Virus record (IMG/VR): IMGVR_UViG_3300006173_000003
Coordinates: 9,439-73,438 of that record
Length of the DNA stretch: 64,000 nucleotides
Reading direction: 5' to 3' (one strand)
Source: a virus
Lineage: Duplodnaviria; Caudoviricetes
Shown here: in pieces, positions 46,130-63,584 of the stretch
Position numbering within the stretch: the first letter of the stretch is position 1
Layout: every line of letters starts with the position of its first letter
The notes under the pieces: model-generated
Databases searched by the model: none
Told to the model about the DNA's origin: nothing
Seen by the model: only the letters and a program-made list of their open reading frames with translations
Position numbers and translations under genes: made by a program

Positions 46130-46133
46130 TAAT

Positions 46134-46772
46134 ATGAATAGAAGGAAACATAATATTGGCGATAAGTTTGGCAGGCTGACAATATCTAAAATTCTTCCTA
46201 ACCGAATTGTGGAAGCAGAGTGCGAATGCGGCAAAGTGAAGGAGTATCATTTTAACAACATTACCTCTGGGAAGACATCTTCTTGTGGTTGCTATAATTC
46301 AGAGCTTAATTTTAAGCATGGCGGATGCGCTCACCCGCTATACACTGTTTGGGAGGGAATATGCCAGAGGTGTTATAGTAAAAATCACCAAAACTATAAA
46401 AACTATGGAGGGAAGGGGGTTACTATGTGTAATGAATGGAAAGAAGATTTCGGGTCGTTTAAAAAATGGGCATTGGATAATGGATGGAAGAAGGGATTGA
46501 AGGTGGATAAAGATATTAAGGCCCCCAAAACAGGTCCAAAAATATACTCACCAGATCATTGTTCTATAATAACTCATCAAGAGAATTTAAGAAATAAGGT
46601 AGACAATAAAATAATAGAATACAACGGCGTTTCTTTGTGTTTAACCGAATGGTCTGAAGTATTGGGAATAAAATACTGTTGTTTGAGAGCTAGAATAGAT
46701 AGGGGCTGGGACACAGAGCGGGCTTTCACAAAACAAAATTTTACTCATAATCAAAAAAGAAAGGTTGCGTAA
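46134..46772 (+). mobile_element. Free-standing HNH-like homing endonuclease gene
   Basis: IGDKFGRLT, CECG, SCGC, RCY...YKNYGGKGVTMCNEW, ITHQENLRNK, LTEWSE...RARIDRGW; Lys-rich, unlike its neighbours. Confidence 0.7.
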
Positions 46773-46774
46773 AA

Positions 46775-47032
46775 ATGGCTACAGGATTTACGATAGAAAA
46801 AGTTGACTATTCTAATATTCCTTCGGGGGTAATAACGTGGACTTTCGAATTTAAATTATTCAGCGCGACCTCGTATACGCTGATAAGCAATTCGGCTCTT
46901 GTGAACACGGATGGAACGCTGTTGTCTCCGCTTCCTGTAACTGGATTAACAGCCGGGCAGTTGTATTACATTCGGGGATCAGCGAATTGTACTAGTCCGG
47001 TCGAAACGTTTTTGCAAATGGTTCAAACCTAA
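46775..47032 (+). CDS. Single FN3/Ig-like structural module
   Basis: SYTLISNSALVNTDGTLLSPLP similar to N-terminus of 34034-35137; GLTAGQLYYIR FN3-like motif. Confidence 0.5.
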   Translation: MATGFTIEKVDYSNIPSGVITWTFEFKLFSATSYTLISNSALVNTDGTLLSPLPVTGLTAGQLYYIRGSANCTSPVETFLQMVQT

Positions 47033-47038
47033 TATATT

Positions 47039-48106
47039 ATGTCGATAAATTTGTCCGTTAACTTAGGGGTGCCAGCGGGAGTAAGCACAAACAGCATATC
47101 TTACGCTAGGATAGACAATTTGGCTCCGGGACAATCTCCTGTGTTTACAAATGCAGGAAACTTTAATACTTTTCCTGCAACTATTGCGACCAATATCCCA
47201 GCAGGGCAATATCAGATTCAGGCGGTCCCCGTATACCCAGATGGAAGGGTATGCACCCCAACGATTCAAACAACTCAGGGATGTCCGGGTCTCATTTCTA
47301 TTACAGCATCTTTGAATAATAATGTAATTGTCGTCAACTATGTTGCCCCATCAACGGCACCAAAAGTAAGGATCACTATAGACTATCCAAATGGAGGTAG
47401 CTCTGTAGCCAACTATGTAAATGACGGGAATCCTATTTCTGTTGGTATCCCTTCCGGACTGTTCGGAACGTATTCTGTTTTTGGTCAGTCGGTTTGTGAC
47501 GAAGGAAGTGGTTTTTATAGTCCCAACTCTTCCACTGTGACGCTGAGTAATTCTCAAACTATTTCAGGGAGCTTCTTCCTTGGAAATACGATTAGCGCTG
47601 CCTGCGGAGCGGCTGCAACCACTCTTTATTCGAATGGGGCAGCTATCCCTGGCGTTCAGTTGTTCTTAGATAACACTCTTACGACGCCTGTTACTGGATA
47701 CTTGTTCGCCTTATACAATGGTATAATATACAACCTTGATAATACGACCGGAGTGTTGGGGTCTGATTCCGGACAGTCTTGTAGTCCAACGGTCATTATA
47801 CAGAACAGTCTTACGTTTATGAACCTGAGCGCCGTGGTTGGAATATCTGGGTTCATATATTCCCCATCCAGCGGGCAGAATACACAGACCGGATCTCATG
47901 GGGCGTTTACGGGTAGCATAACGGTTGGATGGAATGGAAACGTTCCCTCTACCCCAGCCTTCAGTATGGTATTGAAGAAAAACGGGATACAGACGGGATG
48001 CAACAACTTCCCTACAGGAAGCGGAAGTTCCTCCTTTGTTTTTGCAAGCGATACCTATTTGTCAACAGACATTATTCAAATATCTTGTTCAACTGGTTCT
48101 TGTTAA
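47039..48106 (+). CDS. Multi-Ig/FN3-like structural protein (fibre component)
   Basis: Ser/Thr/Gly-rich beta repeats each ending near Cys pairs. Confidence 0.45.
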   Translation: MSINLSVNLGVPAGVSTNSISYARIDNLAPGQSPVFTNAGNFNTFPATIATNIPAGQYQIQAVPVYPDGRVCTPTIQTTQGCPGLISITASLNNNVIVVNYVAPSTAPKVRITIDYPNGGSSVANYVNDGNPISVGIPSGLFGTYSVFGQSVCDEGSGFYSPNSSTVTLSNSQTISGSFFLGNTISAACGAAATTLYSNGAAIPGVQLFLDNTLTTPVTGYLFALYNGIIYNLDNTTGVLGSDSGQSCSPTVIIQNSLTFMNLSAVVGISGFIYSPSSGQNTQTGSHGAFTGSITVGWNGNVPSTPAFSMVLKKNGIQTGCNNFPTGSGSSSFVFASDTYLSTDIIQISCSTGSC

Positions 48107-48108
48107 TT

Positions 48109-48888
48109 ATGATTGACGTATACGACTTATATCAGAGCTTTTGCAGTACATACAATTTGTACTTAGGCGGATGGTTTCGACCTAACACCGATTTTTTGCA
48201 AAAATGCAATGATATAAGTAAGGAGTTGTGGGTAAAGTGGACGGAAGAAGCAGAGAAATCTCAGGAAGCAAAAGATAATCTTTTGCCATTTCTTGTTTCT
48301 AAGAATATCATAGTATCCAATAAGGGACCGTATGGAACTTTTCCAATCCCAAAAGATGAAGAGAAGCCATATGGAAGGTTTTCGGCAGCTAGGATCATTG
48401 TTTCGGGAAAACATTGTGTTCCTTGCAAAGAGGTAGACGGAGGCAGGTGTTCTAATGGTGATTTTACCAGCTCGGAACAATTGGCCGAAGATTATTACAA
48501 TACAATTGAGCAAACAGATGTTGATCTTGTCGATAATCAGAAATGGGGAGCTTGTAATTCTCACTTGACTAAAAAACCTTCTCTTAAAAAGCCAAAGATG
48601 AGGCAGATAGACGATGGATTTCAGGTTGCTCCAAGGGAGGTTAGCGTTATAGTATTGGATTATTACAGGCCACCAAAAGAGGCAACGTTTGTGTATGATA
48701 AGAGTCCGGGTAATGAACAAACTGGGGCTGGGGATATGATAATCTATGATCAGAAAAATAGCCAACCATTAGAATGGCCTTTTAATATAAGAGAAGAGTT
48801 TTTGAATCGTTTGGGACAGGCTTATGGAACTTTTACAAAGGATCAGTTTCTTAGCCAATTTTCAGCACAACAAAAAGCAGCAAGCTAA
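48109..48888 (+). CDS. Putative tail ring/adaptor protein
   Basis: ATG at 48109 (MIDVYDLY); LDYYRPPKEATF...LEWP resembles ring-protein C-termini. Confidence 0.45.
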   Translation: MIDVYDLYQSFCSTYNLYLGGWFRPNTDFLQKCNDISKELWVKWTEEAEKSQEAKDNLLPFLVSKNIIVSNKGPYGTFPIPKDEEKPYGRFSAARIIVSGKHCVPCKEVDGGRCSNGDFTSSEQLAEDYYNTIEQTDVDLVDNQKWGACNSHLTKKPSLKKPKMRQIDDGFQVAPREVSVIVLDYYRPPKEATFVYDKSPGNEQTGAGDMIIYDQKNSQPLEWPFNIREEFLNRLGQAYGTFTKDQFLSQFSAQQKAAS

Positions 48889-49649
48889 TGCCTAGTCAAG
48901 ATTTTACCACATTGCAGCAATTGTTAAACTATACTAATACGTACTTCGTTACCAATGGGGTTAATTCCATCACCGGAGACGAAGGGAATAATATATTGAA
49001 TGGGTTCGGAAAGTTTATTCAGTCGTACACAATGAATAACGGGTTGGCCGGAATATCTTCTAGTAGCGGCGTCGTTCCTTTGTCTAAGCCTGTAACTATA
49101 TTTTCAGTTGCTCCGACTTCGTTTAATTGGACCGACAATGTTCAACAAGAGTATTATATCGTAAACGCCACTGGTGTTGCCATAAATGCGACATCGGGAT
49201 ATTCCTTTGTGGATGCATATGGGACAACGCAGACATCCATTGCGGCTAGGGATTCGGTACATATTGCTAAGGCGACGAATGGGACATGGTATAGAATAAA
49301 CAACGTTTCCGGGTCTGCATCTGGCGGATTGCCTCCGATGACTGGTAATGCAGGAAAAGGTCTGTTCACCGATGGAACAAGCGCGTTTTGGGGAGATAAT
49401 GTTCTCCAGATACCAGCAGGAGACGCAAATTATACCGATGCTACAACATGGGTAAATGGAAGTAGCTATAATCTGGTGCTTCCGAGTCCTCATTTCTTGC
49501 TGTTTTGGAACGAGACCAACAGATTCTTGCTAAGAAATATAAGTCCAGTCGAGTACGGATATGTAACAAATGGGTTTAAAGTTTTTGTTCCGGGATTTGA
49601 CGGATCAAATTCAAATGTATTTTTATTATTCAAAGGAGCAACTTCGTAA
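48888..49649 (+). CDS. Tail fibre-associated protein
   Basis: N-terminal TNGVNSITGDEGNNILN fibre-attachment-like motif; no signal peptide. Confidence 0.45.
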   Translation: MPSQDFTTLQQLLNYTNTYFVTNGVNSITGDEGNNILNGFGKFIQSYTMNNGLAGISSSSGVVPLSKPVTIFSVAPTSFNWTDNVQQEYYIVNATGVAINATSGYSFVDAYGTTQTSIAARDSVHIAKATNGTWYRINNVSGSASGGLPPMTGNAGKGLFTDGTSAFWGDNVLQIPAGDANYTDATTWVNGSSYNLVLPSPHFLLFWNETNRFLLRNISPVEYGYVTNGFKVFVPGFDGSNSNVFLLFKGATS

Positions 49650-49651
49650 GC

Positions 49652-52600
49652 ATGAAAAAAATATTATTCATAGTAGGTCTTCTGATCGGTTTTCAGGTTG
49701 CTTTTTCGCAATCCAGCCCTACCTTTTTGCCTCCAAGGTCATCTGCTACAACTACGGTTCAGGATTCCAGACTTAGAGCGTTGCTGACATTTTATTATCC
49801 ACATACGCATGGATTAACGTTAAACGGAGGGTTGGATACTTTGGGAGCCGTTATATACGAAGACAGCAGTGGGCACGTCTGGTATAGAGACACTATTCCT
49901 GCTGGGGGGCATAGATGGAGAATGATGTTGAGTTTTGGAGATCCAACAGGGGGAGTATCTTCTTTCAATACAAGAACCGGAGCCGTAACGCTTACGTCTG
50001 GTGACGTGATTACAGCGCTTACTTATACTCCAATAAATCCCAATGGAACATCGTCTCAGTACATAGCAGGAGATGGATCAAAAGTTACCTTCCCGACTAT
50101 ACCAGAGCAAATAAATATTACTGATGCTGGTCTCTTTGTTCATTCTGGAAGCTATCCAAATTATACGTTTACCGGGAATACTCCTACGCAGCAACAGGTT
50201 TTTACTCAGGGATCTACCCTTAATCAAAATAACTTCTGGGTAACAGGAGCGAATGTTTTAGGAATGACCGGGACGGCAGCTTTCGGATTGCCTACGGGAA
50301 GCACATCGCAACGCCCATCGTCTGCCGGAGTAGGATATTTCAGATACAATACCGATAGCGCTTCAACAGAAACATATAATGGAAGTCAGTGGATTAAAAC
50401 GGGTACAGGAACGGCCATAACAGGGGTTACAAGTTTCAATACAAGGACGGGTGCTGTTACTTTGAACTCCTCTGATGTTACAACCGCATTGGCTTTTACG
50501 CCATATAATTCCACCAATCCGGCTGGCTATATTTCTAATATAACTGGAAAAATAATTAATGGAGCCAATATAGTCATAACCGGAAGCGGAACCGGTGTTG
50601 ATCCATATGTAATCATCGGAACTGGTGGTGGGGGAGGTGGGGGGAATACCAATTCAAATATTGGATCGGGGTATAGGTTTGCGGTTCCCAACACCAACAG
50701 TATAAAAACTTTATTCTGTTCAGGATGTACGTTGGATAGCACCACGAATGCCAATGCTCTTACATTAACGGTAACTGGGGGTAGTGGAATTACCCAATTA
50801 ACAGGGGATGGAACCGCTGGGCCAGGATCGGGAAGCCAGGCATTTACTTTAACGACCGTCAATAGTAATGTAGGAACTTTTGGAAGTGCATCATCGGTTC
50901 CTGTTTTTGTCGTCAATGGAAAGGGTCTTGTGACCGGCGTAACGAATACATCAATTCAGATAACTGAATCTCAGGTAACGAATTTAACAACAGATTTGGC
51001 TGGCAAGCAACCAACTGGAAATTATATAACTGGGATTACTGGAGATGTTGTCGCCACTGGCCCCGGATCGGTAGCCTCTACAATTCAAGCAAACGCGGTA
51101 ACTACAGGAAAAATAAATAATAACGCTGTTACCTATGCAAAATTTCAAGCCTCTTCTCAAGCTGCTTTATTGGGGACAAATGCTGCCGGAAATTTTGGAG
51201 AAATAACGTTGGGGACTGGATTGTCTTTTAGCGGCTCAGTTTTAAATGCAACAGGGGGAGGGTCTCAGACATTAACGTATACTCAGCTTGCTCTCAATAA
51301 CACACTGTCTATTAGTGGGGGTAATACCCAGACATTTCTTGTAGCTACCCACGCTTTGGCAGGGTTAATGGATTCTGCATCAAAAGCCGTTGTAGACAGC
51401 TTGCGCCTTAGAACTTATACTTTTCCTTCTGGCAGCGGATTGACGGCAGGAGGAGGATTCTCTCCATTATTCACCAATACGGTAACTGGGTCTACTCTTA
51501 ATTTTGTTGCCTCCAATGCTGCTGCTAATTCTGCTTTTGGAAATTTTACTGGATCACCAGCGCCGGCAGCATTTGGGAAACTTCCCCTTGCAGCAATGGC
51601 TACAGGAACAGCCAATACTCTAATAGGATATGATGGGTCTGGTAATCCTTCGGGAATAACAGTGGGCTCCGGATTGTCGCTGGTTAGCGGTACATTAAGC
51701 TCTACAGCAGGAGGAGGTAGTGTTACAAGCGTAGGACTCGCATTGCCCGCTAGTTTATTTGCTGTTTCTGGTTCCCCCGTCACCGGTGCGGGAACTTTAA
51801 CCGGTTCATTCAATACTCAAAACGCAGGATTCGTTTTAGTGAGCGATTCGGTAAATAATGGTCAAGTGCCTACCATGCGTCATCTTGTGGTTAAAGACCT
51901 TCCAGTATTTAGCCCGTGGCCCGCAGAGGCTCCAATGGGAACCATATACAGTAAATCAGCATGGTCATTGCCGGTCACAGATTTTATTCCCGGACCAATA
52001 GCTCAGCTAACATATGCAATCAGCACAGAAGGTTATTTAAATGTTACAGGTCCATCCGCAGTAACGTTTAACAACTATGCTAGAGTGTTACAGCAAAGAC
52101 CGACCCAGCTACCCAGATTTACGGAGACTGTCGTTTTTAAAATGCTGACCACTCCTGCCGCTGGAACGGTAGGATTTGGAATAGGCATTAAACAAAACAA
52201 TGGAGCCATTGGAGATTTCACGGCATATGTCAATACGACAAATAGCGGATCTTCTGGCTTTCTTACCATCGTTCGTTCAGACGGTAGCGTTACTTATCAG
52301 AGTGGGTCCAGTTCAAATACTGTACACTTGAATGATGTCATGCAATTAAAGGTTGTGTATGCCGACTCCGTTGTAACGGCTTTTTTGACTAATATAACTA
52401 CTGGTATTACGTCTACTCCATTAGTATGGACAAATACCATCCCAAGTGCTGTTAGTCCTCTTTTTACGGATTGTAGTTTTTCTTTTACACCATTTGGGCC
52501 AGCCACATACCAAATCCAATCCTATACTATTACCTCTGAAACCATTAGGAATGCAAATATGATTTTCATTGGGGACTCAAAGACCCAAGGATTTAAGGCT

Positions 52601-54958
52601 AATTTTTTCAATGGTAGATTCGGGTGGCAAATGGGACAGTCTTTCCCGTCTGCTGTAATTTGGGCTGGAGGTTCCAATAAAACTACTGATGTCCTTCTGC
52701 AAATGGACGAATTGTCCCAATTGAACGGAGCCAATATTTTTATGAGTCTTGGATCGAATGATATTCGGGGAGGAGCTACAGTGACAGCAACAATGATTAA
52801 CTATAACAGAATAGTTAATATGCTCCGCGCCTATGGTGCCAACGTATATCACATGGTATTCCCAGAAGACTCTACGTCTACTGGAGTTGGATTAACAGCG
52901 CTGAAGAATGCAATACTAGCAACATACCCTACAACATATATAGACACATGGGACACGCTTTCTACAGCAGGAAATAATATTTTAAGAGCCGCTTACCAAG
53001 GAGATGCCGTACATCCAAATCAGGCCGGTAATGATGCCATAGTCCGAGCAATTAATGCCAGTGGATTTGGTAAAGTAATTGCTACAAATAGGAAATCGGC
53101 CTATAGAATCACTGATGGTAATATTAAATTCAACGGAGACAGTTTATTCTTATTCCCCATTGACAAAAACACAAATTATGTAAACCACTGGACAAGCAAT
53201 GGTAGTTTTACAACTGGATTATTGCAGGACAATGGAATTGTATCCGGAGCCTCTGCCTCTCCATTGGCCCCAGTAGCCAACACCATATTTAATGTTAATG
53301 GAGTGCTGGGTATTCAGGGAACAAGTGGTGGAATTTTGTTTTCAGGTAGAGACAACGCAGATCAAACAATAGGAGAGGCGGCTATTTTTTGCTCAAATTA
53401 TGCTATTCGGTATTTTGCCAATGGAGTCCAGACATTCTCTGTAGATTCCGCAGGAAGAGCAGCGATAGGCAATGTGGCTGTAGGCAATGGAGTAAATGCG
53501 TTCTTGTCTATAAGCCCTGGTCTTGCCGCTAGACCCCCTCTTAGATTTACTGTTAATGGGTCGGTGCTAACATCAACCCCACAGGCAGGCGCATTAGAGG
53601 TATTAGTTGATAGCCTTTATTTTACAGGGAATAATGGTACAAGGAACAAAATATGGCCACAATCCGCAAGTGGAGGTAATCCATTTGCAGACAACACCGC
53701 ATTGGTAAAGAATAATGCAGACAACACAAAATTGCTAATCTTAAGCGCTGCATCCATTTCCACAGCAACCACAAGGACGGCAACCTTCCCAGATGCAAAT
53801 ATCACTGTAGCAGATAAATTAAGCCCTTTAAGCCAATTCGCTTCTACCACATCTGCTCAATTACTTGGAGTCATTTCAGACGAAACAGGGACCGGATCAT
53901 TGGTATTTGGGACATCTCCAACTATTGCTACACCCCTCTTCACTGGATTAACAAGTTCAGGAGCCAATGACTCAGTTCTTACTGTTGATCCTACCACTGG
54001 GCAATTACATAGAAGATCTGGGGCTTTCAATTTATTCTTCGCAAACGGATTGACAGCAGCAGGAGGGGATAGTGCATATTGGGGAGGAACTTTAAATCAG
54101 CCCACTACCATTTCTGGAGCCGGATTCCCTGTATCGTTGGGGACTTCGGGAAGCAACTTAGGAGGTCTATCTATTACAGGTGGAAAGTATAACAGTGCGC
54201 AAGGGTCTCAAATATTAGGTGTGGCCTCGACCATAAATAATGCTATAACAGCAGGTAGCGGGAACGTTACCAATTTTTCTGCATACGCTTTCTTGGCCCC
54301 CACGATTACTAGTACGAATACTTCGGTTACTTATACAACTCCATCCACTTTATATATTGACAATGCCCCAACGCTAAGCACAAATTCTTCTGCAACTGGG
54401 AGGGTGTATGCATTAAATGTAAACGCAGGAATAAATCACTTTGGATTAGGGCCTGCTAATGTTACTGCTCTTTTTGATGGTTGTGTATTTGTAGGAAATG
54501 CAACTATAACCGGAAACACATTGTTAGGCATTGGACCTTCAACTGCTACTCAAACAGCGGTTAGATTTGAGTCTGGAGTTGACTTAACTTCTCCCGCATC
54601 TGGTCAAATGTGGTGGAACGGAACCAATTTTTATTTTGGGGATGCTGGAGGAATTAAAAGGGATTTGTTGAACGGAGTGCACAATTATGTACATTCAATA
54701 TTTACCCCTACGACTGGAGGAACGGTAAGTTTAATCAACAATAATTATAATATTATAAATCCGGCTGGGGCCCTGGTTGCATTAACTGTAAATTTGCCTT
54801 CTTCTCCGTCAAACAATGATGTGGTTTATATAAAGTATACGCAGACAATCAGTACGGTAACTTATGCCAATGGAACCGTAGTGGATGGAATAACAGCACC
54901 GACGGCTGGTGGGATGGTTGTGTTAACTTATGATAGCGGGACAACAAGCTGGTACTAA
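49652..54958 (+). CDS. Tail-fibre-like protein with Sec signal peptide and SGNH esterase domain
   Basis: MKKILFIVGLLIGFQVAFS|Q; fibre motifs VxSFNTRTGAVTL (x2), LPTGSTSQRP...RYNT, ITESQVTNLTTDLAGKQ, AVTTGKI; SGNH GDS..GSND..DAVHP at about 52560-53030. Confidence 0.75.
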   Translation: MKKILFIVGLLIGFQVAFSQSSPTFLPPRSSATTTVQDSRLRALLTFYYPHTHGLTLNGGLDTLGAVIYEDSSGHVWYRDTIPAGGHRWRMMLSFGDPTGGVSSFNTRTGAVTLTSGDVITALTYTPINPNGTSSQYIAGDGSKVTFPTIPEQINITDAGLFVHSGSYPNYTFTGNTPTQQQVFTQGSTLNQNNFWVTGANVLGMTGTAAFGLPTGSTSQRPSSAGVGYFRYNTDSASTETYNGSQWIKTGTGTAITGVTSFNTRTGAVTLNSSDVTTALAFTPYNSTNPAGYISNITGKIINGANIVITGSGTGVDPYVIIGTGGGGGGGNTNSNIGSGYRFAVPNTNSIKTLFCSGCTLDSTTNANALTLTVTGGSGITQLTGDGTAGPGSGSQAFTLTTVNSNVGTFGSASSVPVFVVNGKGLVTGVTNTSIQITESQVTNLTTDLAGKQPTGNYITGITGDVVATGPGSVASTIQANAVTTGKINNNAVTYAKFQASSQAALLGTNAAGNFGEITLGTGLSFSGSVLNATGGGSQTLTYTQLALNNTLSISGGNTQTFLVATHALAGLMDSASKAVVDSLRLRTYTFPSGSGLTAGGGFSPLFTNTVTGSTLNFVASNAAANSAFGNFTGSPAPAAFGKLPLAAMATGTANTLIGYDGSGNPSGITVGSGLSLVSGTLSSTAGGGSVTSVGLALPASLFAVSGSPVTGAGTLTGSFNTQNAGFVLVSDSVNNGQVPTMRHLVVKDLPVFSPWPAEAPMGTIYSKSAWSLPVTDFIPGPIAQLTYAISTEGYLNVTGPSAVTFNNYARVLQQRPTQLPRFTETVVFKMLTTPAAGTVGFGIGIKQNNGAIGDFTAYVNTTNSGSSGFLTIVRSDGSVTYQSGSSSNTVHLNDVMQLKVVYADSVVTAFLTNITTGITSTPLVWTNTIPSAVSPLFTDCSFSFTPFGPATYQIQSYTITSETIRNANMIFIGDSKTQGFKANFFNGRFGWQMGQSFPSAVIWAGGSNKTTDVLLQMDELSQLNGANIFMSLGSNDIRGGATVTATMINYNRIVNMLRAYGANVYHMVFPEDSTSTGVGLTALKNAILATYPTTYIDTWDTLSTAGNNILRAAYQGDAVHPNQAGNDAIVRAINASGFGKVIATNRKSAYRITDGNIKFNGDSLFLFPIDKNTNYVNHWTSNGSFTTGLLQDNGIVSGASASPLAPVANTIFNVNGVLGIQGTSGGILFSGRDNADQTIGEAAIFCSNYAIRYFANGVQTFSVDSAGRAAIGNVAVGNGVNAFLSISPGLAARPPLRFTVNGSVLTSTPQAGALEVLVDSLYFTGNNGTRNKIWPQSASGGNPFADNTALVKNNADNTKLLILSAASISTATTRTATFPDANITVADKLSPLSQFASTTSAQLLGVISDETGTGSLVFGTSPTIATPLFTGLTSSGANDSVLTVDPTTGQLHRRSGAFNLFFANGLTAAGGDSAYWGGTLNQPTTISGAGFPVSLGTSGSNLGGLSITGGKYNSAQGSQILGVASTINNAITAGSGNVTNFSAYAFLAPTITSTNTSVTYTTPSTLYIDNAPTLSTNSSATGRVYALNVNAGINHFGLGPANVTALFDGCVFVGNATITGNTLLGIGPSTATQTAVRFESGVDLTSPASGQMWWNGTNFYFGDAGGIKRDLLNGVHNYVHSIFTPTTGGTVSLINNNYNIINPAGALVALTVNLPSSPSNNDVVYIKYTQTISTVTYANGTVVDGITAPTAGGMVVLTYDSGTTSWY

Positions 54959-54967
54959 ATAATAGAA

Positions 54968-55396
54968 ATGAAAACAATAGTCACTGGATTTATTGTTGGG
55001 ATATTGGGGATTCTTTCCTTTATTGGATTCGAAAGGTTCAATAGTTATCCTGTTTTTTTTGACCATAATGGCCAACTGACAGCAAATCAAGTAAGGATAT
55101 GGGCCGACACGACAACGCCAACAACTGGATCTGGATTTAGTATTGACATATCTTCGGCCGGATTTTCTGCAATCAAGTCAGCTACGGTAACGGCCCAAAA
55201 TAATACCTCTTCTATCGGATCAATGCCAATAGTAGTGATAAAGTCTGTTTCGACGACAGCTATTGTGGTAAACATAATGGAACAAAATAGCGCCACCACA
55301 ACTATTTTAGGAATTACTGTTTTGTCTGGGTCTCCATTGCAATTAGCTTCGTCTACTTCTGGATTTTTACTGAACGTAAAAGTAGAAGGGTATTAA
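54968..55396 (+). CDS. Small exported or membrane-anchored beta protein (fibre-tip-like)
   Basis: MKTIVTGFIVGILGILSFIGF hydrophobic N-terminus; Ser/Thr-rich beta body. Confidence 0.5.
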   Translation: MKTIVTGFIVGILGILSFIGFERFNSYPVFFDHNGQLTANQVRIWADTTTPTTGSGFSIDISSAGFSAIKSATVTAQNNTSSIGSMPIVVIKSVSTTAIVVNIMEQNSATTTILGITVLSGSPLQLASSTSGFLLNVKVEGY

Positions 55397-57070
55397 ATGA
55401 AGATAATTTTATCTATATTTTTTTTATTTCCTTCTATCGTCTTCGGACAATGGATTGGTTCTCCCGGAGAATATGTGAATCTACTTTTAAATACTTCTAC
55501 TCATAGGGCCTATACCGTGGATAATGCCGTACCCACTATAGTTCCCAGCCCGACAAATGTATCTGCAATTGCCGGTGGGCCACATAGCGCATGTCTGATA
55601 GATAATTTAGGGAATGTTTATTGTAAAGGGCAGAATCCAAACGGAGTAATTCCAAATGGGACGCAAACTGACCAAAGTAGTTTTGTCATATGCATGACAG
55701 ACAATTTAAGTAATACCCTTGATCCTGTAATACAGGTTTTCCTAAGCGGGAATGCAAATAAAGGAGCTTTTTGGAATGTATTTGCCGTAACAAACAGCGG
55801 TAAGTTATATGGGGCTGGAGAGCTTGAATCATATGTTATCGGAGATGGGACAGCGGGGACAGCCGTAAACACTAGATGGGTTAGAATAAACGTTGGAAGT
55901 GGAACGGATACGTTTGTAACAAAGATACAAGGAGGATATGGGATGCTGGCCAAGACTGCTGCCGGGAGTGTATACACATGGGGGGCTGATAGGGATGGAT
56001 ATATAAACGGACAGGGAACTACAACTGCGGCAACAACTCCAACAAAAGTTTCTTTACCCGGAGGCAAGACGGCCCTTGATATTGCGAGTAACGGATTGGT
56101 CCATGCTGTATTGCTAAGCGATGGAACGCAAGCGATGACGGGCTCTCAAAACCTAAATGATTACATTGGGATATATCCTACTGCGATGACCAGAAGTTTT
56201 CAGGATGTCACCAGTGCGTTAGGGTTGCCAGCACCAGCCAAGGCTGTTTCCATGAATGCGTCCACAACCTACTGGATTTTGACCAGCGGTGCAATGTGGG
56301 CTCATGGAGATAATAGTTGCGGAACGATCGGCAATGGGGATATGTTAGATTGGGGGGCATATAAATGCTGTCCGGGGCCAAGCTCAGGGTCTCCTGCTCC
56401 ATATAATTACGATAATGGATTCCATGAGCATATGCAGATATCTCCCGTAGAACCGGTGCCAGGAAAAAGGGATTGGATGATGGTTAATACGTGTGCATCG
56501 AATAGCTGGTTTGCTCATGCGACAGATTCAACTGGAAGGTTCTATACGTGGGGAAGAAATAAATTTGGACCTCTCGTAAATTCAATCATTGGGGCTAATC
56601 CGGTAAATGGAGGCATCGGAGCAGCATATCCAGATTCATGGTCTATTCCTTGGGTCACACAACAGTTCCCCTCCTCAATTACCGCATATGTTCAGAGTAC
56701 CAGCCCTTATTGTCTATTGAATCCATCAGGGGCCCCATGCAATACATATACTCCTCCGGTAAATGTAAAGCCAACGGCTGCTTTAACCGTTAGGCAGGTA
56801 GGAACATCTGTTATATTGGATGCCTCCGGAAGCACAGACGACGTTTTTATTATGTCTTATTTGCATACTCAATTAACGGGAACAGCATTGCAATTGAAAA
56901 TAAGAACAGGAGTAAAAGATACCATACAAAATGTTTCTCCTGGGTCTTACTCATTTAAGACGAAAGTTACTGACAATGGGTTTTTGACGGACAGCGTATC
57001 GGTTAGTTTCACTGTATTGCCTCCTAATGTGATTCCAATACCATATGGGGTTAGAATAATACCACATTGA
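55397..57070 (+). CDS. Exported RCC1-repeat protein with PKD-like domain
   Basis: MKIILSIFFLFPSIVFG|Q; RCC1-like GNVYCKGQNPNG, GSVYTWG, GRFYTWGRN; PKD-like LDASGSTD...GSYSFKTKVTDN. Confidence 0.75.
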   Translation: MKIILSIFFLFPSIVFGQWIGSPGEYVNLLLNTSTHRAYTVDNAVPTIVPSPTNVSAIAGGPHSACLIDNLGNVYCKGQNPNGVIPNGTQTDQSSFVICMTDNLSNTLDPVIQVFLSGNANKGAFWNVFAVTNSGKLYGAGELESYVIGDGTAGTAVNTRWVRINVGSGTDTFVTKIQGGYGMLAKTAAGSVYTWGADRDGYINGQGTTTAATTPTKVSLPGGKTALDIASNGLVHAVLLSDGTQAMTGSQNLNDYIGIYPTAMTRSFQDVTSALGLPAPAKAVSMNASTTYWILTSGAMWAHGDNSCGTIGNGDMLDWGAYKCCPGPSSGSPAPYNYDNGFHEHMQISPVEPVPGKRDWMMVNTCASNSWFAHATDSTGRFYTWGRNKFGPLVNSIIGANPVNGGIGAAYPDSWSIPWVTQQFPSSITAYVQSTSPYCLLNPSGAPCNTYTPPVNVKPTAALTVRQVGTSVILDASGSTDDVFIMSYLHTQLTGTALQLKIRTGVKDTIQNVSPGSYSFKTKVTDNGFLTDSVSVSFTVLPPNVIPIPYGVRIIPH

Positions 57071-58971
57071 AATATTGGTATACGATATTGGTGTTTATTG
57101 CCTGTCAGGCAAGTGCGGCAAACAAATATTATGCGTCTGCTGCTGGATCAGACGGAAATGCATGTAGCATATCATTGCCATGCAGGCAAGTAAATAAGTT
57201 AATATCCGTTGCCTCTTCTGGGGATACGCTTCTTCTTAATGGCGGCGATTCTTTCAACTCATTTATAGTAAGTAAATCGAATCTATGGATAGGGAGCTAT
57301 GGGACTGGACAGCCAATTATAACCGGCTTTATCGCCCTGTCTGGTTGGACTTTGTTGGGAGGAGGTATTTATCAAACGGCTTGCGCTGGGTGTAGTGTAA
57401 ATACAAACTTACTTTTAATGAATGGTGTCCAGCAGCCATTAGCCCGTTGGCCTAACACCGGATATAGAACCTATACAAGTTTTTCGGGAACAACTTCAAT
57501 AACAGATCCTACATTAACCAATACGCCAAACTGGACAGGAGGGTATGTGGCCATTCGAAATAACCGGTTTACTCTTTCGACAAACTTAATTACTAATCAT
57601 TCTACAACTGTAATTACATATACCGCCGCAACATCACAAACGGGAAATAATAATTACGGATACTTCATCATAAAAGACTCTCTTGCACTGGATACATTAG
57701 GGGAATGGTGGTACAGCCCCAGCACAGGTAACATGAAAATGTATTTTGGAGCCGCCAATCCAGCTTCTTATACAGTACAAACGACGACAGTTGATACCTT
57801 GATTACAGTCGTAAATAATTTACGGAATATAACCTTTAGCAATCTTGACTTAGAAGGAGCCGGAGTTTATGGGTATTATATCGGAAAGGATACCAATGTG
57901 GTTGTAAAAAACAATACAATCCGATATTCAGGAGGAATAGGTTATTGGTCTCAACAGGGAGATTCCTGTCAGCTTATAAATTCCATTATTCAATACTGTA
58001 ATAGTGTGGGAGTGGGAGACGATGCCAGCGGGAAGTCCGGGTACTATGGAACGGATACTATTTCAAATATTGCGCTTATTCCGGGTCAGGCATTTCTTCT
58101 TCAAGGGCACAACTGGATGGGAGCTTTTTTAAACGACTCCTTCAATATAATTGAATATAGTCGCATTCATAATACTGGGGGAAACGGAATAAATATTTAC
58201 GATGCCAAAAGCTGTAATAATAATGCTGCTGATTCTTCCAATTTAGTTGTCGATGATGGAGGCCCAATTTATTGTCTGGGGTATACGGATACTACGGTAG
58301 TAAAAAGAATATATCAGAATGTCGTTGGAGATGGCGTTGGTGCTCCTGCCGGGACTAATACGGCTATAGGGTTCTCGAATGGCATTTATGTCGATCAAAA
58401 TAACGCCAATGTATATGTAGATAGCAACACTGTCTATAATTGCTCCAATGCCGGAATATATTTCCATGATTCAAGAAACAGCTACATTCTGGGCAACACA
58501 GTCTATAATTGCAAGTATCAACTCCTTTTCCAAGGAGATCAGCCTACGCAGCCAATAGTAAGGATGACCGTTAAAAAAAATGTATTTGGGATAAGTAAAA
58601 CAACCCAAGATGTCATTCATTTTGATGCCTTTAATGGTCTCCGGTTTAATAACTCTTTCGGGACGCTGGACAGCAATTATTATGGATTGACCCCCTCTTC
58701 GGCTACCTGTTTTTACTCTGGATTAAGTCAGACTTATAGCCAATGGCACGACTCTACATCGGATAGTCATGGCACCCTTCTTCCGTCCCCAACCCTATTC
58801 CAATACAATAATACTCAGTCTCCTATACCTCTGTCGCTGACCAAAAATTACTATGATGCCTTGAATAAAAGCTACTATATTAGTACGGTCGTGCCAGCCT
58901 TCGGATCTCTTTTCCTGGTTCCTGGAAGTTTTATTAATTATACGCCGGGGGTAAAGTGGATATTGCATTGA
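57067..58971 (+). CDS. Exported right-handed parallel beta-helix protein (pectin lyase-like fold)
   Basis: TTG start, MKYWYTILVFIACQASA|A; GSDGN..S...P, GDTLLL..GD, DGGPIY, GIYVDQN, NTVYNC repeats. Confidence 0.75.
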   Translation: MKYWYTILVFIACQASAANKYYASAAGSDGNACSISLPCRQVNKLISVASSGDTLLLNGGDSFNSFIVSKSNLWIGSYGTGQPIITGFIALSGWTLLGGGIYQTACAGCSVNTNLLLMNGVQQPLARWPNTGYRTYTSFSGTTSITDPTLTNTPNWTGGYVAIRNNRFTLSTNLITNHSTTVITYTAATSQTGNNNYGYFIIKDSLALDTLGEWWYSPSTGNMKMYFGAANPASYTVQTTTVDTLITVVNNLRNITFSNLDLEGAGVYGYYIGKDTNVVVKNNTIRYSGGIGYWSQQGDSCQLINSIIQYCNSVGVGDDASGKSGYYGTDTISNIALIPGQAFLLQGHNWMGAFLNDSFNIIEYSRIHNTGGNGINIYDAKSCNNNAADSSNLVVDDGGPIYCLGYTDTTVVKRIYQNVVGDGVGAPAGTNTAIGFSNGIYVDQNNANVYVDSNTVYNCSNAGIYFHDSRNSYILGNTVYNCKYQLLFQGDQPTQPIVRMTVKKNVFGISKTTQDVIHFDAFNGLRFNNSFGTLDSNYYGLTPSSATCFYSGLSQTYSQWHDSTSDSHGTLLPSPTLFQYNNTQSPIPLSLTKNYYDALNKSYYISTVVPAFGSLFLVPGSFINYTPGVKWILH

Positions 58972-59008: not shown

Positions 59009-59362
59009 ATGTCTCCATTTTGGACTGAAATTTTAGGTAAAGACAACGACCCAAATATTCTTGCGGCGGCATTCGTTTTTGCCCTTATTGGTATTTTTAT
59101 TACCCTTCTTTTGGGAACCACGACCCGGCAAGTATTATCCGAAAACAGCCCCATGCATTTTTCATGGTCGTATCTACTGTCAGATAATTTCAAGCGAATC
59201 GTGGCCACATTGCTAATGGTGGTCATATCCCTTCGGTTTGTTCATGACTTGTTCGGATTTGAGCTTAGCTCATGGCATGGATTCGTTATTGGTTCTGGGT
59301 GGGACGGATTAGCGTTCATCATAAAACAAAAAACGAAATTATTAGATCCCAGTGCAAAATAA
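59009..59362 (+). CDS. Putative holin
   Basis: 117 aa with about 3 TM segments at the head of the lysis cassette. Confidence 0.5.
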   Translation: MSPFWTEILGKDNDPNILAAAFVFALIGIFITLLLGTTTRQVLSENSPMHFSWSYLLSDNFKRIVATLLMVVISLRFVHDLFGFELSSWHGFVIGSGWDGLAFIIKQKTKLLDPSAK

Positions 59363-60023
59363 AATCATTTTTGGATTATGTATTGTATGCCTTGCGTTGG
59401 CAGTACTCTTCTGGCGGTCTTGCCATAAGTCAGTCTTAGTGTCTCCTACAAAATCGGACAGCGCCGTAGATAGCATAGTCAAAAAAGCAATTTCCGATAC
59501 TGTTTTGGTTCATCATTTTGCAGATTCAGTTAATCGGGAAAACATCGTTCTGAAAGGGCAGCGAGATTCCTTACTATACTTATTGGGAGTAACCAAGGGA
59601 AGCCTCAAAGGAAAGGATAGAGACATTCAGGCCCTTATCGATAACATTAACCAAGCAGAGGCCGGGAACAACCAGGGAGCCGCTTTGGTAGCCTGCGACT
59701 CCTTAAAAACGGCCTACCCGATTGCCAAGGGACTTGTAACTCAATACATCCGTTCCAATGACTCACTAATCAAAGTAAACGATCTTATTTCAAGAAACAA
59801 GGATACAATCATATGGCGTCTGAATTCAGCCTTTACGGATGCCAATAATTCTTTATTTGAAATATCACGTCAGTATGGGGTAGTGTCGGGGAGTTACAAA
59901 AAAGCATTAAAGCAGGCTGGCAAAAGATGGGGGATTGGCCCGCAAATTGGAGTTAGTGTAGTAGGGGACAAATTTGCTCCTGTAATTTCTTTTGGAGTTA
60001 CGTATAACTTAATCAAATTCTAG
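59352..60023 (+). CDS. Putative spanin
   Basis: GTG start; N-terminal TM ending RSC, periplasmic coiled coil, C-terminal amphipathic beta strands ending in F. Confidence 0.55.
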   Translation: MQNKIIFGLCIVCLALAVLFWRSCHKSVLVSPTKSDSAVDSIVKKAISDTVLVHHFADSVNRENIVLKGQRDSLLYLLGVTKGSLKGKDRDIQALIDNINQAEAGNNQGAALVACDSLKTAYPIAKGLVTQYIRSNDSLIKVNDLISRNKDTIIWRLNSAFTDANNSLFEISRQYGVVSGSYKKALKQAGKRWGIGPQIGVSVVGDKFAPVISFGVTYNLIKF

Positions 60024-60084
60024 TCATGGAAAGAAATAATTCAACTTATCAACCTATTAAACCACAATCCCATACTATTGAATC

Positions 60085-60378
60085 ATGGAACGATATTGGA
60101 CGCGATTTGCCCGATTTATCAAAGAAAACCACACGAAAAGAATTAAAGAAACTTTTAGCGGATATTGTATGGGTTTTATTGGCGCTAAGTCTCTTCTCTT
60201 TAGTGGGATCATGGCTAATTTGGTAGGACCTCTATGGTGGATTGCCAAAGGCATAGGAACGGTTATGCTAGCGTTCTGCACAAGTGTCGCCACGGCTTAT
60301 GGAGCGTATCTGATAGAAATTCACAAGGAGAATCAAAAAAAAAGCCCCGAATCCAAGAGAAAAGACCGCGCCGCTTAA
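60085..60378 (+). CDS. Small membrane protein (holin-like)
   Basis: Two hydrophobic segments and a basic C-terminal tail; competes with overlapping ORF 60026-60226. Confidence 0.45.
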   Translation: MERYWTRFARFIKENHTKRIKETFSGYCMGFIGAKSLLFSGIMANLVGPLWWIAKGIGTVMLAFCTSVATAYGAYLIEIHKENQKKSPESKRKDRAA

Positions 60379-60396
60379 CTTCAAACAAATATAAAA

Positions 60397-60579
60397 ATGA
60401 ACCACGAAAAGGACGAAAAAAAACGTCATCATGAACATCCTGATAAGGAGGCTAAGCCCCATTCAGAACCGCCTAAAAATCCTTTACCAGAGGATACGCC
60501 TTCGGAAGAATCGTCAAATACAGAAGATTCGAATCCAGATAAGCCCCCTCCTGGCGGCACTCCGGGTTCGGGTCATTAG
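60397..60579 (+). CDS. Small acidic Pro-rich peptide
   Basis: 60-aa disordered ORF ending DKPPPGGTPGSGH. Confidence 0.45.
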   Translation: MNHEKDEKKRHHEHPDKEAKPHSEPPKNPLPEDTPSEESSNTEDSNPDKPPPGGTPGSGH

Positions 60580-60613
60580 GCACTCTTTAATTATTTTAGG
60601 GTCAGTATTGATT

Positions 60614-60988
60614 ATGGGGGAGATCCCGTCAATACTGACCGATTTTTTTCCTGAATGGAGTAGAACACAAGTATATTGGTTTGCAGACCCATACTATCAT
60701 TATTCTACCCAACGAAATGACATGCTTAAGTTTATCGCTAACGATTTGTTTGATATTGGATTAGCTGTAATAGCCGTCAAAGCTGCCAAACAATTTAGTG
60801 TATATTTATTCTTGGTATTAGTAATTGTTCTGGGGTATTTAATAGTAGGGTTCATAATGCTTTTTTGGGATTTTAAGACCAGCCACCTCTTTTTCTATGA
60901 CTTTTTATTGACTATCTTTATATTGATTAAGGGCGTTTTTAAGGGATATAGGCCAGAGACTTTGGCTAGAATAAAATCAATTTTTTAA
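60614..60988 (+). CDS. Multi-pass membrane protein
   Basis: Three hydrophobic segments; start uncertain. Confidence 0.5.
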   Translation: MGEIPSILTDFFPEWSRTQVYWFADPYYHYSTQRNDMLKFIANDLFDIGLAVIAVKAAKQFSVYLFLVLVIVLGYLIVGFIMLFWDFKTSHLFFYDFLLTIFILIKGVFKGYRPETLARIKSIF

Positions 60989-61003
60989 ACAAAAACTAAA
61001 TAT

Positions 61004-61159
61004 ATGACAACGTTCTGGTGGTGTTTGGGTCTCGGAGTGGTGGCGTTTGTTTCTGGCTTTCTGGTAAGCCGAAATAACCCTAACTTAAAAGTAGTGAACA
61101 AAATAATCTCAACAGGTCAAGCGGTTATAGACGCTACTGGTAAACTTGTAAAAAAATAA
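61004..61159 (+). CDS. Small single-TM protein (51 aa, absent from ORF track)
   Basis: MTTFWWCLGLGVVAFVSGFLVSRNNP...KLVKK. Confidence 0.6.
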   Translation: MTTFWWCLGLGVVAFVSGFLVSRNNPNLKVVNKIISTGQAVIDATGKLVKK

Positions 61160-61161
61160 CT

Positions 61162-61443
61162 ATGGACACAACTAAATCAATCACTCTGGGTCAAGCGTTC
61201 GCCCATTGTGCAAGCACAGGTTCGTATTGGTTATGGATAGCCATAACTTTGGTTCTTGTTGTTGGAACAGCTATTGGGATGTTCGTATACGCTAAGAAGG
61301 CAGAGATAAATCCATATGTGAAATTGGCCTTGATATTCGCAATGGTAGCTGCTTTGTTCTGTTGCGTCTTTATTCGCCCTTGCAGCGTGGCTGTTTCGAC
61401 TAGCGTAACCATGGCGGCAAAAAATCACTGGCTCGGCTATTAA
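61162..61443 (+). CDS. Two-TM membrane protein
   Basis: Two clear hydrophobic helices. Confidence 0.6.
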   Translation: MDTTKSITLGQAFAHCASTGSYWLWIAITLVLVVGTAIGMFVYAKKAEINPYVKLALIFAMVAALFCCVFIRPCSVAVSTSVTMAAKNHWLGY

Positions 61444-61857
61444 ATGTTTCCAATGAAACCATTATTTGTGATTATAGTCTGGTTTATATTCGTGGCTATA
61501 AATATCTTTATCGCAGAAGCAAACGATGCTACCAGACGTCGTAGAATAGCCAATAAAAATCCCAAACAAATAGAGCACTTCTGGTATGGGTTGGGATATG
61601 TTCTTATCTGCGGCGTACCTTTTTATATATCGAGAAACTGGTGGGAAATTAGTAGTTTAATCCTGCTTCACGCCAGCGTATTTCCAGTATCGTACAATCT
61701 TTTTGCAGGTAATTCTACTTTCCAACTGAGCACGACAAGTTCGTCCATTTTTGATCGGCTCCTAGTTAAGTTGGGAATGAAATCCACCGAAGAGGTAAAC
61801 ATTATTTCTTTTTGTCTCAGTATTATATTTTTAGTAATTCAAATCATTTTAGGATGA
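61444..61857 (+). CDS. Four-TM membrane protein
   Basis: Hydrophobic segments throughout; ATGA overlap with lysin. Confidence 0.6.
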   Translation: MFPMKPLFVIIVWFIFVAINIFIAEANDATRRRRIANKNPKQIEHFWYGLGYVLICGVPFYISRNWWEISSLILLHASVFPVSYNLFAGNSTFQLSTTSSSIFDRLLVKLGMKSTEEVNIISFCLSIIFLVIQIILG

Positions 61858-62438
61858 CAAAACCTGTATTGTCGGTTGAATTGGCAAATGCATGCCGCCC
61901 TTCAACCATCGAAGAAAAAGTTTGGCTATTGGGTCTAAGAGGATGGCAAGGAGAAAATAAAATAGGTATATATGATGATGCCATTTTTTTGATCACTCCC
62001 GATGGAATTACTGGATATAATGCCAATACAGATCCGTCTCGACTTCTTAAAGGTGTTGCTACACTAGTTCCCGGTACTTATTACTATAAGAAGGGATTAC
62101 ACGGGTTGCACCATCTTGACCTTAATAAAGGGAATGATCAGGCCGCGCTAAATGAAGCCATTCGGACCGGCAGGGACGTTTCTAGCCTTACATACTGGGC
62201 ATTTCGCCAAGATTCGGATGTGACTGTAAAAAGGGAAGGGGACCCCGATTCTCACACAGATAACGCTAAAAACAGATTTTGGATAGACATTCACCGGGGA
62301 GGGTATAATACAACTTCCAGTGCCGGATGCCAGACCATTCATCCTGATCAGTGGAAGGAACTGAAAGAAAAAGGATATGCTGCCATGGATACATATAATG
62401 AGCCACGCATACCTTATGCTTTGGCTCTAAAAAAGTAA
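61854..62438 (+). CDS. Putative endolysin with L,D-transpeptidase (YkuD)-like catalytic motif
   Basis: IDIHRGGYNTTSSAGCQTI (H...SxGC); last gene of the lysis cassette before a terminator. Confidence 0.6.
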   Translation: MTKPVLSVELANACRPSTIEEKVWLLGLRGWQGENKIGIYDDAIFLITPDGITGYNANTDPSRLLKGVATLVPGTYYYKKGLHGLHHLDLNKGNDQAALNEAIRTGRDVSSLTYWAFRQDSDVTVKREGDPDSHTDNAKNRFWIDIHRGGYNTTSSAGCQTIHPDQWKELKEKGYAAMDTYNEPRIPYALALKK

Positions 62439-62465
62439 TTGAAGATAGGTTTAGTTGTTTTATAG

Positions 62466-62501
62466 GCCCCGGAAGCGTAGAAATATGCGCCGGGGTTTTT
62501 T
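62466..62501 (+). terminator. Intrinsic terminator ending the late operon
   Basis: GCCCCGG/CCGGGGT stem followed by T-run. Confidence 0.75.
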
Positions 62502-62505
62502 CATT

Positions 62506-62545
62506 AAAAATATAATCCCCAACTTAGAGAGAAGCTGGGGATTAT
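62506..62545 (-). terminator. Minus-strand terminator hairpin
   Basis: 14-bp stem 62512-62525/62532-62545; the plus-strand A-C mismatch becomes G-U on minus; U-tract follows on minus. Confidence 0.6.
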
Positions 62546-62749
62546 ATTCCATCAAACGGTTTAGTAAATGTTTGACTATCAAAATTATTGTTGGCAAATT
62601 AATGGGCTTGCCGACCTCTTTGATGAACTATTTCATGATTACCTCCCTTTATGTTCATTATTAATGTGATACCTTCCTGAAACGAAAGTAAAATAAATTA
62701 TTTAAAAATAAAATTAGGAAATGTGATAACATGATAATATCTTTACTTC

Positions 62750-62917
62750 ATGGAAACAAGAAAAACAACACCCGGTCACATAGATAGCGACATAATGAGG
62801 AAGATAAGAAAGTTTGTTGCCGATAAGGGAGGAAACATAAAACAAGTTCTTGAAACGGGAGCTTTATGGGTAATGAGCGATGGATCTAAAGAGTACATTA
62901 GAAAATTAAAGAAATGA
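62750..62917 (+). CDS. Ribbon-helix-helix DNA-binding protein (55 aa, absent from ORF track)
   Basis: KTTPGHIDSDIMRKIRKFVADKGGNIKQVLETGALWVM; ATGA overlap with next gene; TATCTTTA -7-like box at 62738-62745. Confidence 0.6.
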   Translation: METRKTTPGHIDSDIMRKIRKFVADKGGNIKQVLETGALWVMSDGSKEYIRKLKK

Positions 62918-63102
62918 AAATACTTTGTTACTTACTTTGTGTTATTTTCCCACCTTTATTAATGTATCTAATTGGTAGTTTTATAATGTTATCATTTGAT
63001 ATTAGGGGGTGGAACGAATCGGGAAGAGCAATTGGAGCCATTTCGTCATTGATGTTGACGGGGGTTTGTATAGCTGTTACCGCGGATGAATTTAAAAAGT
63101 AG
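62914..63102 (+). CDS. Small two-TM protein
   Basis: 62-aa hydrophobic ORF. Confidence 0.55.
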   Translation: MKILCYLLCVIFPPLLMYLIGSFIMLSFDIRGWNESGRAIGAISSLMLTGVCIAVTADEFKK

Positions 63103-63150
63103 CCCGTTTTTCATCTTGCCCTATTCAACGTTGCTAAAAACACATAAGAC

Positions 63151-63327: not shown

Positions 63328-63338
63328 AAACATCTACA

Positions 63339-63419: not shown

Positions 63420-63435
63420 AAAATAAACAACAAAT

Positions 63436-63573: not shown

Positions 63574-63574
63574 G

Positions 63575-63584
63575 CCCCCCCCCC
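63575..63584. repeat. Intergenic poly-C10 homopolymer
   Basis: Ten consecutive C in an AT-rich intergenic region. Confidence 0.8.

Follow-up and report, generated by a model that had tools for sequence, protein, structure and literature searches.

Export leaders on fibre-like genes of a tailed phage and a possible maturation of virion proteins in the bacterial periplasm

In the textbook account tailed phages are assembled in the cytoplasm. Why, then, should a run of genes at the end of a phage tail module, headed by a fibre-like protein of 1768 amino acids (aa), be equipped for export? We met this question in a 64,000-nucleotide stretch of the genome of an uncultured Caudoviricetes phage (here the window; bases 9439-73438 of the 73,438-b IMG/VR virus record IMGVR_UViG_3300006173_000003, with an estimated completeness of 68%), where four consecutive genes, P0001 to P0004 (49652-58971), each open with an N-terminal export segment. 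We conclude that their products are very likely exported to the periplasm, because their leaders are conserved and because the P0001 and P0004 families, and not leaderless fibres, show about threefold enrichment of O-glycosylation sequons. That P0001 and its partners then join the virion is plausible, on the grounds of a modular fibre architecture tied to the tail module and, by analogy, of tandem mass spectrometry (MS/MS) annotations in the Cellulophaga phages phi18:3 and phi10:1. A sequence-only reading of this stretch had proposed both steps, with joining at or after lysis; the export step has gained strong support from conserved leaders and sequon enrichment, and the joining step stands as plausible, with indirect support from architecture and analogy.

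Export leaders and their conservation

P0001 (49652..54958, + strand), a fibre-like mosaic, starts with MKKILFIVGLLIGFQVAFS followed by QSS; its signal peptide covers residues 1-19 (49652..49708, + strand), with predicted cleavage between AFS and Q. P0002 (54968..55396, + strand; 142 aa) starts with MKTIVTGFIVGILGILSFIGF and combines a signal anchor with a beta-rich C-terminal domain. P0003 (55397..57070, + strand; 557 aa) starts with MKIILSIFFLFPSIVFG followed by QWI, the signal peptide covering residues 1-17 and ending in VFG before Q, and P0004 (57067..58971, + strand; 634 aa, TTG start) starts with MKYWYTILVFIACQASA followed by ANK, its signal peptide again covering residues 1-17 and ending in ASA before A. 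The sequence-only reading had reported signal-peptide-like N-termini on all four genes and Gln at +1 on two of them, and both observations hold. By inspection, the leaders of P0001, P0003 and P0004 have the n-, h- and c-region layout, obey the (-3,-1) rule and are of the cleavable, signal peptidase I (SPase I) type, the +1 residue being Gln in P0001, Gln in P0003 and Ala in P0004. In P0002 a hydrophobic segment spans residues 4-21; an AXA-type site is lacking, the c-region does not fit the cleavable type, and this N-terminus looks like an uncleaved signal anchor. When all 93 greedy open reading frames (ORFs) of the 73-kb genome were scanned for hydropathy, the sole N-terminal hydrophobic segment among the ~26 proteins encoded between 11 and 49.6 kb belonged to a 205-aa protein at 11009, and small membrane proteins come after the four-gene run.

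Other export routes were considered and rejected. Pfam and NCBIfam gave no type IX secretion system (T9SS) C-terminal domain (PF18962/TIGR04183/TIGR04131; E <= 0.01-0.05) and no autotransporter domain in P0001-P0004, and neither route was retained. The only lipobox candidate among the four proteins, FIA-C13 of P0004, did not survive comparison: the homologue on phage contig L017 has Pro at -1 and the Cys is missing in most homologues, so P0004 was rejected as a lipoprotein (signal peptidase II) substrate. These searches, together with the non-conservation of the Cys, agree with the earlier impression that no clear lipobox, autotransporter barrel or T9SS C-terminal domain is present.

The reality of the leaders was tested by evolutionary comparison across the homologue families. 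A full HMMER search with P0001 residues 1-360 returned 1618 proteins at E <= 1e-3. Among the cluster representatives, 49 can be aligned with P0001 from residue 1 onwards, and the leader is present in 47 of these (the remaining two look 5'-truncated). In a 45-sequence alignment of this family, +1 is Gln in 44/45, -1 is S, A or G in 44/45, and K or R occurs within residues 1-4 in 44/45, with a median Kyte-Doolittle hydropathy of 2.66 over columns 4-15; identity is 33% in the leader vs. 53% over residues 20-95. The next Met of P0001 lies only at residue 91, and the AlphaFold2 (AF2) model places a helix over residues 2-19. For P0003, full-length homologues at 36-80% identity all have a leader, followed by Gln in nearly all (one homologue at 44% identity is apparently cleaved before Phe); those at 64-80% identity retain leader and Q despite a diverged leader sequence, and three aligned phage copies have an invariant mature start, QW.GS.GEY, preceded by a leader that can hardly be aligned and contains an indel. 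Nearly all of ~40 P0004 homologues carry a leader that runs directly into a conserved mature start, (A/T)-N-Y-Y-x-S-x-x-G-x-D, and the TTG start of P0004 matches the L017 homologue residue for residue. In the P0002 family, a divergent hydrophobic N-terminus followed by the conserved NSYPVFYDHNGQL is found in nearly all of 36 homologues, the exceptions again looking 5'-truncated. Wrong start codons were rejected on the alignment of P0001, P0003 and P0004 with their homologues. The sequence-only reading would have been weakened by signal peptides that are not conserved among homologues; they are conserved, in all four families and down to 25-50% identity, and this retention while the sequence drifts argues that the leaders are working export signals.

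A further protein of the leader-plus-Gln kind is encoded upstream of the window, by a small early-region ORF on the minus strand (G000:C1 4587-5024; MKYTLTITLLLSAIFSNG followed by QFK). Small ORFs beside it resemble a signal-peptide protein and a lipoprotein (...LVSC).

Sequons, fibre architecture and partner proteins

The general O-glycosylation system of Bacteroidota modifies only non-cytoplasmic proteins, at D-(S/T)-(A/I/L/V/M/T) (PMC12871550). Measured against composition-preserving shuffles, P0001 holds 15 such sequons vs. 6.1 expected (0/300 shuffles reach 15) and P0004 holds 7 vs. 2.3 (p ~0.01). Across 16 members of the P0001 family we counted 262 sequons vs. 88.5 expected (3.0x), every member being significant, and phage-type P0004 homologues hold 53 vs. 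14.2 (3.7x); the P0003 family reaches only 1.5x (30 vs. 19.5). In P0001 the sequons occupy varied contexts and are not one repeated motif. Leaderless fibres that carry the P0001 377-497 module (see below), taken as a control, fall below expectation (27 vs. 39.6, 0.68x). Sequon density per 100 aa is 0.84 in the four genes vs. 0.29 in the rest of the phage proteome. The densest protein of the genome is P0064 (59352..60023, + strand; 223 aa), which belongs to an exported set downstream of the four genes, combines an N-terminal membrane anchor with DUF6808 at the C-terminus (E 2.9e-7), and carries 8 sequons vs. 0.7 expected (0/300 shuffles reach 8); a spanin-like function, or another periplasmic one associated with lysis, is possible. 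We regard the enrichment as an independent sign that members of the P0001 and P0004 families are exposed to the periplasm, and we predict that they are glycosylated.

What kind of protein is sent out? The earlier description of P0001 as a mosaic of phage fibre motifs proved apt: the repeat FNTRTGAVTL occurs twice (residues 105 and 262), the stretch 377-497 is a module common to 14 viral contigs at 42-72% identity, and one match falls in a GenBank-annotated tail fiber protein. Further along lies an SGNH/GDSL esterase domain (52565..53035, + strand; residues 972-1128; PF13472, 53.7 bits vs. a cut-off of 32.9), with intact motifs GDS (974-976), GSND (1034-1037) and DAVH (1118-1121); the esterase looks active. 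The cleavage site is directly followed by a conserved domain of about 75 residues at the mature N-terminus (49709..49936, + strand; ~residues 20-95, RSS..TVQDSR.R..L.FY.PHTHGLTLNGGLDTLG...GGH.W), which heads at least 47 cluster representatives of 194-1810 aa with unrelated distal parts and is a candidate docking domain. In residues 1-160, AF2 resolved no more than a small beta domain besides the leader helix (mean predicted local distance difference test, pLDDT, 68), Foldseek found no match for this model of mean pLDDT 68, and a PDB sequence search with P0001 and P0004 likewise gave no match.

The sole true relative that we recovered, from one metagenome scan, is a 35-kb metagenome contig (L023). 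It has capsid-like and tail genes in the same order at 39-60% identity, including a 253-aa protein directly upstream of the fibre. The first 106 residues of its fibre are 47% identical to P0001, and everything beyond is replaced; next come two further proteins with leaders (128 aa, and 684 aa with leader plus Gln) and then membrane proteins. In the window the corresponding 253-aa protein (48888..49649, + strand; 39% identity, same position in L023) is leaderless and adjoins P0001 upstream, and it is a candidate tail-side partner of the fibre; its resemblance to Phage_fiber_2 and to the T4 gp9/10 N-terminal domain consists of sub-threshold weak leads only (ESM Atlas). Searches with the fibre N-terminal pattern and with the major-capsid-like protein gave no close relatives in IMG/VR or in 185,579 species genomes. 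The P0001 fibre family itself was absent from those 185,579 species genomes, which argues that it is not a cellular protein family. Among the other proteins of the genome, Pfam and PHROG recognised no leaderless fibre- or tailspike-like protein, most proteins being unannotated. The layout of large leader-bearing genes after tail genes and before lysis-type genes recurs in the unrelated phage contigs L016, L017, L007 and L008. P0001 thus lies where a receptor-binding protein gene would be expected, closing the tail module, and joins a lineage-conserved N-terminus to a distal part that consists of fibre modules and can be exchanged; this is the architecture of a receptor-binding protein, from which we infer its presence in the virion.

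The partners are of varied fold. P0002 shows a C-terminal resemblance to H-type lectin and gp53-like domains that is a weak, sub-threshold lead only (scores 0.84-0.86, ESM Atlas). P0003 comprises an RCC1-like beta-propeller, a PKD/Ig domain and a short C-terminal tail. P0004 is a right-handed beta-helix (PF13229, TIGR03804) with a flexible C-terminal tail; its AF2 model (pLDDT 90.7) has the Bacteroides glycoside hydrolase BT_1002 as top Foldseek match (5mqp, E 3e-17, template modelling score, TM, 0.56), followed by matches to phage depolymerases at E 1e-9 to 1e-5, and we predict a beta-helix glycanase. P0003 and P0004, whose folds are unrelated, have similar tails, ...PYGVRIIPH (57020-57070) and ...TPGVKWILH (58921-58971). 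A C-terminal G-x-(R/K)-x(3-4)-(H/Q/N) is present in 6/15 P0003-family and 5/11 P0004-family proteins (11/26 together) vs. 1/223 other proteins, and the P0004 tail is disordered in the AF2 model. This common tail could be a docking tag.

A possible route from periplasm to particle

We lean, at a little better than an even chance, towards reading the four genes as a Sec-exported host-recognition and glycan-processing module that is matured in the periplasm and mounted on particles at lysis. P0001 would be its long fibre with an SGNH esterase, P0002 a membrane-anchored beta-domain, P0003 an RCC1-propeller/PKD binder and P0004 the beta-helix glycanase. The module would pass through the host Sec translocon; SPase I would trim P0001, P0003 and P0004, with P0002 remaining tethered to the inner membrane, and host glutaminyl cyclase would cap the N-terminal Gln of P0001 and P0003 as pyroglutamate, following the Bacteroidota Q-rule. 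Folding in the periplasm would be accompanied by host O-glycosylation at D-(S/T)-(A/I/L/V/M/T) sites; cleavage by SPase I and glycosylation are strongly predicted from the leaders and sequons. Holin and endolysin would then breach the inner membrane and murein and merge cytoplasm with periplasm, the outer membrane still intact, and fibreless particles would meet matured fibres. The fibre would dock via its conserved N-terminal domain, and P0003 and P0004 may ride via their common C-terminal tail. In model phages, tailspikes and fibres are added last, and their addition is possible in vitro, which makes late fibre attachment kinetically reasonable; the virion attachment of P0001 and its partners, and its timing, are inferred. 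In a bolder form, which we offer tentatively and rate somewhat below an even chance, the periplasm would be a second assembly compartment of Bacteroidota tailed phages: the fibre and its enzyme or lectin partners would be Sec-exported, pyroglutamate-capped and decorated with O-glycans, then mounted within seconds between inner-membrane and murein breakdown and outer-membrane rupture, with the P0003/P0004 tail plugging the enzymes onto the fibre.

Proteins of cultured phages bear on the attachment step. In Cellulophaga, phi18:3 gp085-087 (NC_021794.1) and phi10:1 gp091-094 (NC_021802.1) have leader plus Gln, lie directly before the lysis genes and are annotated in GenBank as structural, 'based on experimental MS/MS proteomics analysis'. 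They share with P0001-P0004 the slot (tail-module end, pre-lysis), the leader-plus-Q start and the arrangement as consecutive genes including a beta-helix/pectate-lyase type; they differ in having no detectable homology to the window proteins, and those of phi18:3 are not sequon-enriched. Leaders and mature N-termini are almost identical between gp086/gp087 of phi18:3, a podovirus (L019:9545-13584), and gp093/gp094 of phi10:1, a siphovirus (L025:16101-19392), which argues that a leader-bearing cassette has moved between phages of different tail types. No comment on the leaders of these Cellulophaga structural proteins was found in the literature searched.

Several points weigh against mounting on the particle, or against parts of the route proposed. 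Cleavage is read from rules and conservation, and presence in the particle of this phage is extrapolated from MS data on other phages only. Those data concern non-homologous proteins and could reflect co-purifying envelope material, and one cassette is common to a podovirus and a siphovirus, which is a strange pattern if the proteins dock directly to the tail and fits such co-purification as well as it fits true docking. The lack of sequon enrichment in the phi18:3 leader proteins suggests that glycan selection is lineage-specific. In its fold P0004 comes nearer to a cellular, monomeric glycoside hydrolase (BT_1002, TM 0.56) than to trimeric tailspikes (TM 0.2-0.3), and its beta-helix begins right after the leader without an N-terminal adaptor domain. 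Its distant homologues are cellular T9SS-secreted enzymes carrying PF18962; P0004 itself does not carry this domain, from which it appears that the phage form has lost it. Finally, large leaderless unannotated proteins of this phage (1515 aa, 713 aa and 355 aa) could hold the true receptor-binding function.

The rival that survives best, unlikely as we judge it, would make the four products exported non-virion proteins that act on the envelope glycans of the infected host itself, the true receptor-binding protein being an unannotated leaderless tail protein. Such proteins might de-acetylate or cut O-antigen, capsule or extracellular polysaccharide precursors and so block superinfection or stop progeny from sticking to debris. 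It has the well-supported export on its side, and it draws further on the cellular T9SS-secreted relatives of P0004, the likeness of P0004 to BT_1002, the intact SGNH esterase of P0001 and a cassette common to phages of different tail types. It also has a published counterpart: among the prophage proteins of Porphyromonas gingivalis whose function is unknown, some follow the Q-rule and were taken as host-surface modifiers (PMC10367356). These are, like the present proteins, phage-encoded and have Bacteroidota-type leaders with +1 Gln, but they are unknown proteins of temperate phages and not receptor-binding modules in a fibre slot. What sets P0001 apart from a pure envelope enzyme is that it has fibre repeats and modules common to leaderless phage fibres, and that its N-terminal domain is conserved with the tail module of the lineage while the distal part has been exchanged, as is characteristic of receptor-binding proteins of virions. 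Moreover, neither a T9SS C-terminal domain nor a lipoprotein signal is there to take the proteins across the outer membrane, so the enzymes would stay in the periplasm; the module takes up 9.3 kb, ~13% of the genome; and analogous proteins were detected by MS in virion preparations. The sequence-only reading had offered action on the host envelope, as adhesins or depolymerases, as its alternative. It suits P0004 especially, given its look of a host-type monomeric glycoside hydrolase, and we favour it less than mounting on the virion.

A second rival, which we consider improbable, keeps the fibres in the cytoplasm: the hydrophobic N-termini would go unused in the virion copies, their helix being buried in the tail or inserting into a membrane on infection, and export would be a side route. 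We know of no studied case in which tailed-phage assembly is other than cytoplasmic, and P0002 has no evident cleavage site, both of which speak for it. Yet the strict (-3,-1) pattern and the +1 Gln in 44/45 fibre-family sequences mark substrates of SPase I and glutaminyl cyclase, not structural helices; the leader drifts freely next to a conserved mature domain; and a threefold sequon enrichment is left unexplained for a cytoplasmic protein. That the leaders are annotation artefacts, wrong starts or leftovers of recent host captures is very improbable and largely refuted, for, although the database gene call of P0004 (P0021) begins 8 codons later and P0004 has distant cellular relatives, the next Met of P0001 at residue 91, the residue-wise alignment of the TTG start with the L017 homologue, the persistence of leaders to 25-50% identity and the absence of the fibre family from the cellular genomes searched all stand against it.

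Returning to Sec export followed by mounting at lysis, its separate elements have relatives among known systems. The Q-rule describes Bacteroidota substrates of Sec and SPase I (PMC5837995, PMC10653852), in which a pyroglutamate cap stabilises extracytoplasmic proteins (PMC10653852). P0001, P0003 and 44/45 fibre-family representatives share with such substrates an n/h/c leader, small residues at -3/-1 and the +1 Gln; here, however, the cargo is a fibre-like mosaic from a lytic-looking tailed phage, P0004 has Ala at +1 and P0002 looks uncleaved. Enzymatic fibres and tailspikes (SGNH deacetylases; Klebsiella K1 lyase, LKA1 gp49) resemble the module in their repeats, intact SGNH motifs and beta-helix fold, and in the conserved N-terminus and variable distal architecture seen in P0001. 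The known ones differ in having no signal peptide and in folding in the cytoplasm, and P0004 departs from them in lacking an N-terminal particle-binding domain and resembling a monomeric hydrolase. The coat proteins pIII and pVIII of filamentous phages (PMC4823517) are likewise virion proteins that become part of the particle after passage through the export machinery of the host, but they belong to another virus realm with secretion-coupled assembly and no lysis; nothing comparable has been described for Caudoviricetes, and no description of Sec-exported tail fibres or of Sec leaders on tailed-phage fibres was found in the literature searched.

Genome setting and implications

Nearly all genes of this phage lie on the + strand, and no tRNAs were found in the genome. 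The large terminase (26655-28880) matches phrog_6681 and distantly resembles the terminases of Flavobacterium 'elemo' podophages and of Maribacter phage Panino. Most window proteins match nothing in Pfam and PHROG scans, the hits being the large terminase (TerL), an HNH endonuclease, DUF6808 and DUF6948. Homologues of P0003 and P0004 are located in a Puia sp. metagenome-assembled genome (MAG) provirus and in Pedobacter and Segetibacter MAGs, and these clues point to a host among soil Bacteroidota.

The four genes had been placed between tail genes and a lysis cassette. The first label holds by position and synteny with L023, the upstream 'tail genes' having no Pfam or PHROG match; the second is presumptive for 59009-64000, where it draws on membrane-protein content and synteny with L016 and L017. 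The first presumptive lysis gene (59009..59362, + strand) encodes a membrane protein of 117 aa, recognised by hydropathy and without a family match above cut-off. Pfam, PHROGs and NCBIfam recognised no endolysin in this region, which holds small membrane proteins, a phrog_3000 match (61812-62438) and DUF6948 (63495-63917).

Two irregularities of the upstream tail region came to light in the comparison with L023. An HNH endonuclease gene (46134-46772; phrog_374, E 8e-51) is inserted within 43988-48106, a region that is a single 913-aa tail gene in L023. The 713-aa ORF (43988-46129), an 85-aa ORF (46775-47032) and the C-terminal third of a 355-aa ORF (47039-48106) jointly match that L023 protein, whereas the 355-aa ORF corresponds at its N-terminus to the gene that comes next in L023. 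The tail gene may have been split by a homing endonuclease or rearranged. The ORF at 47929-48888 overlaps the preceding gene by 178 b, and because the alignment with its L023 homologue begins only at residue 61, its true start is probably a Met near 48109.

If phages that infect a major bacterial phylum do mature their receptor-binding proteins in the periplasm, host-range engineering would change, as such fibres would not be simply expressible in the Escherichia coli cytoplasm, and so would the reading of virion proteomes and our view of how lysis timing is coupled to assembly. Host glycans and pyroglutamate caps might then help phages to cloak their fibres or make them more stable. Cultured Cellulophaga phages, for which virion MS data already exist, offer a direct test of the idea.

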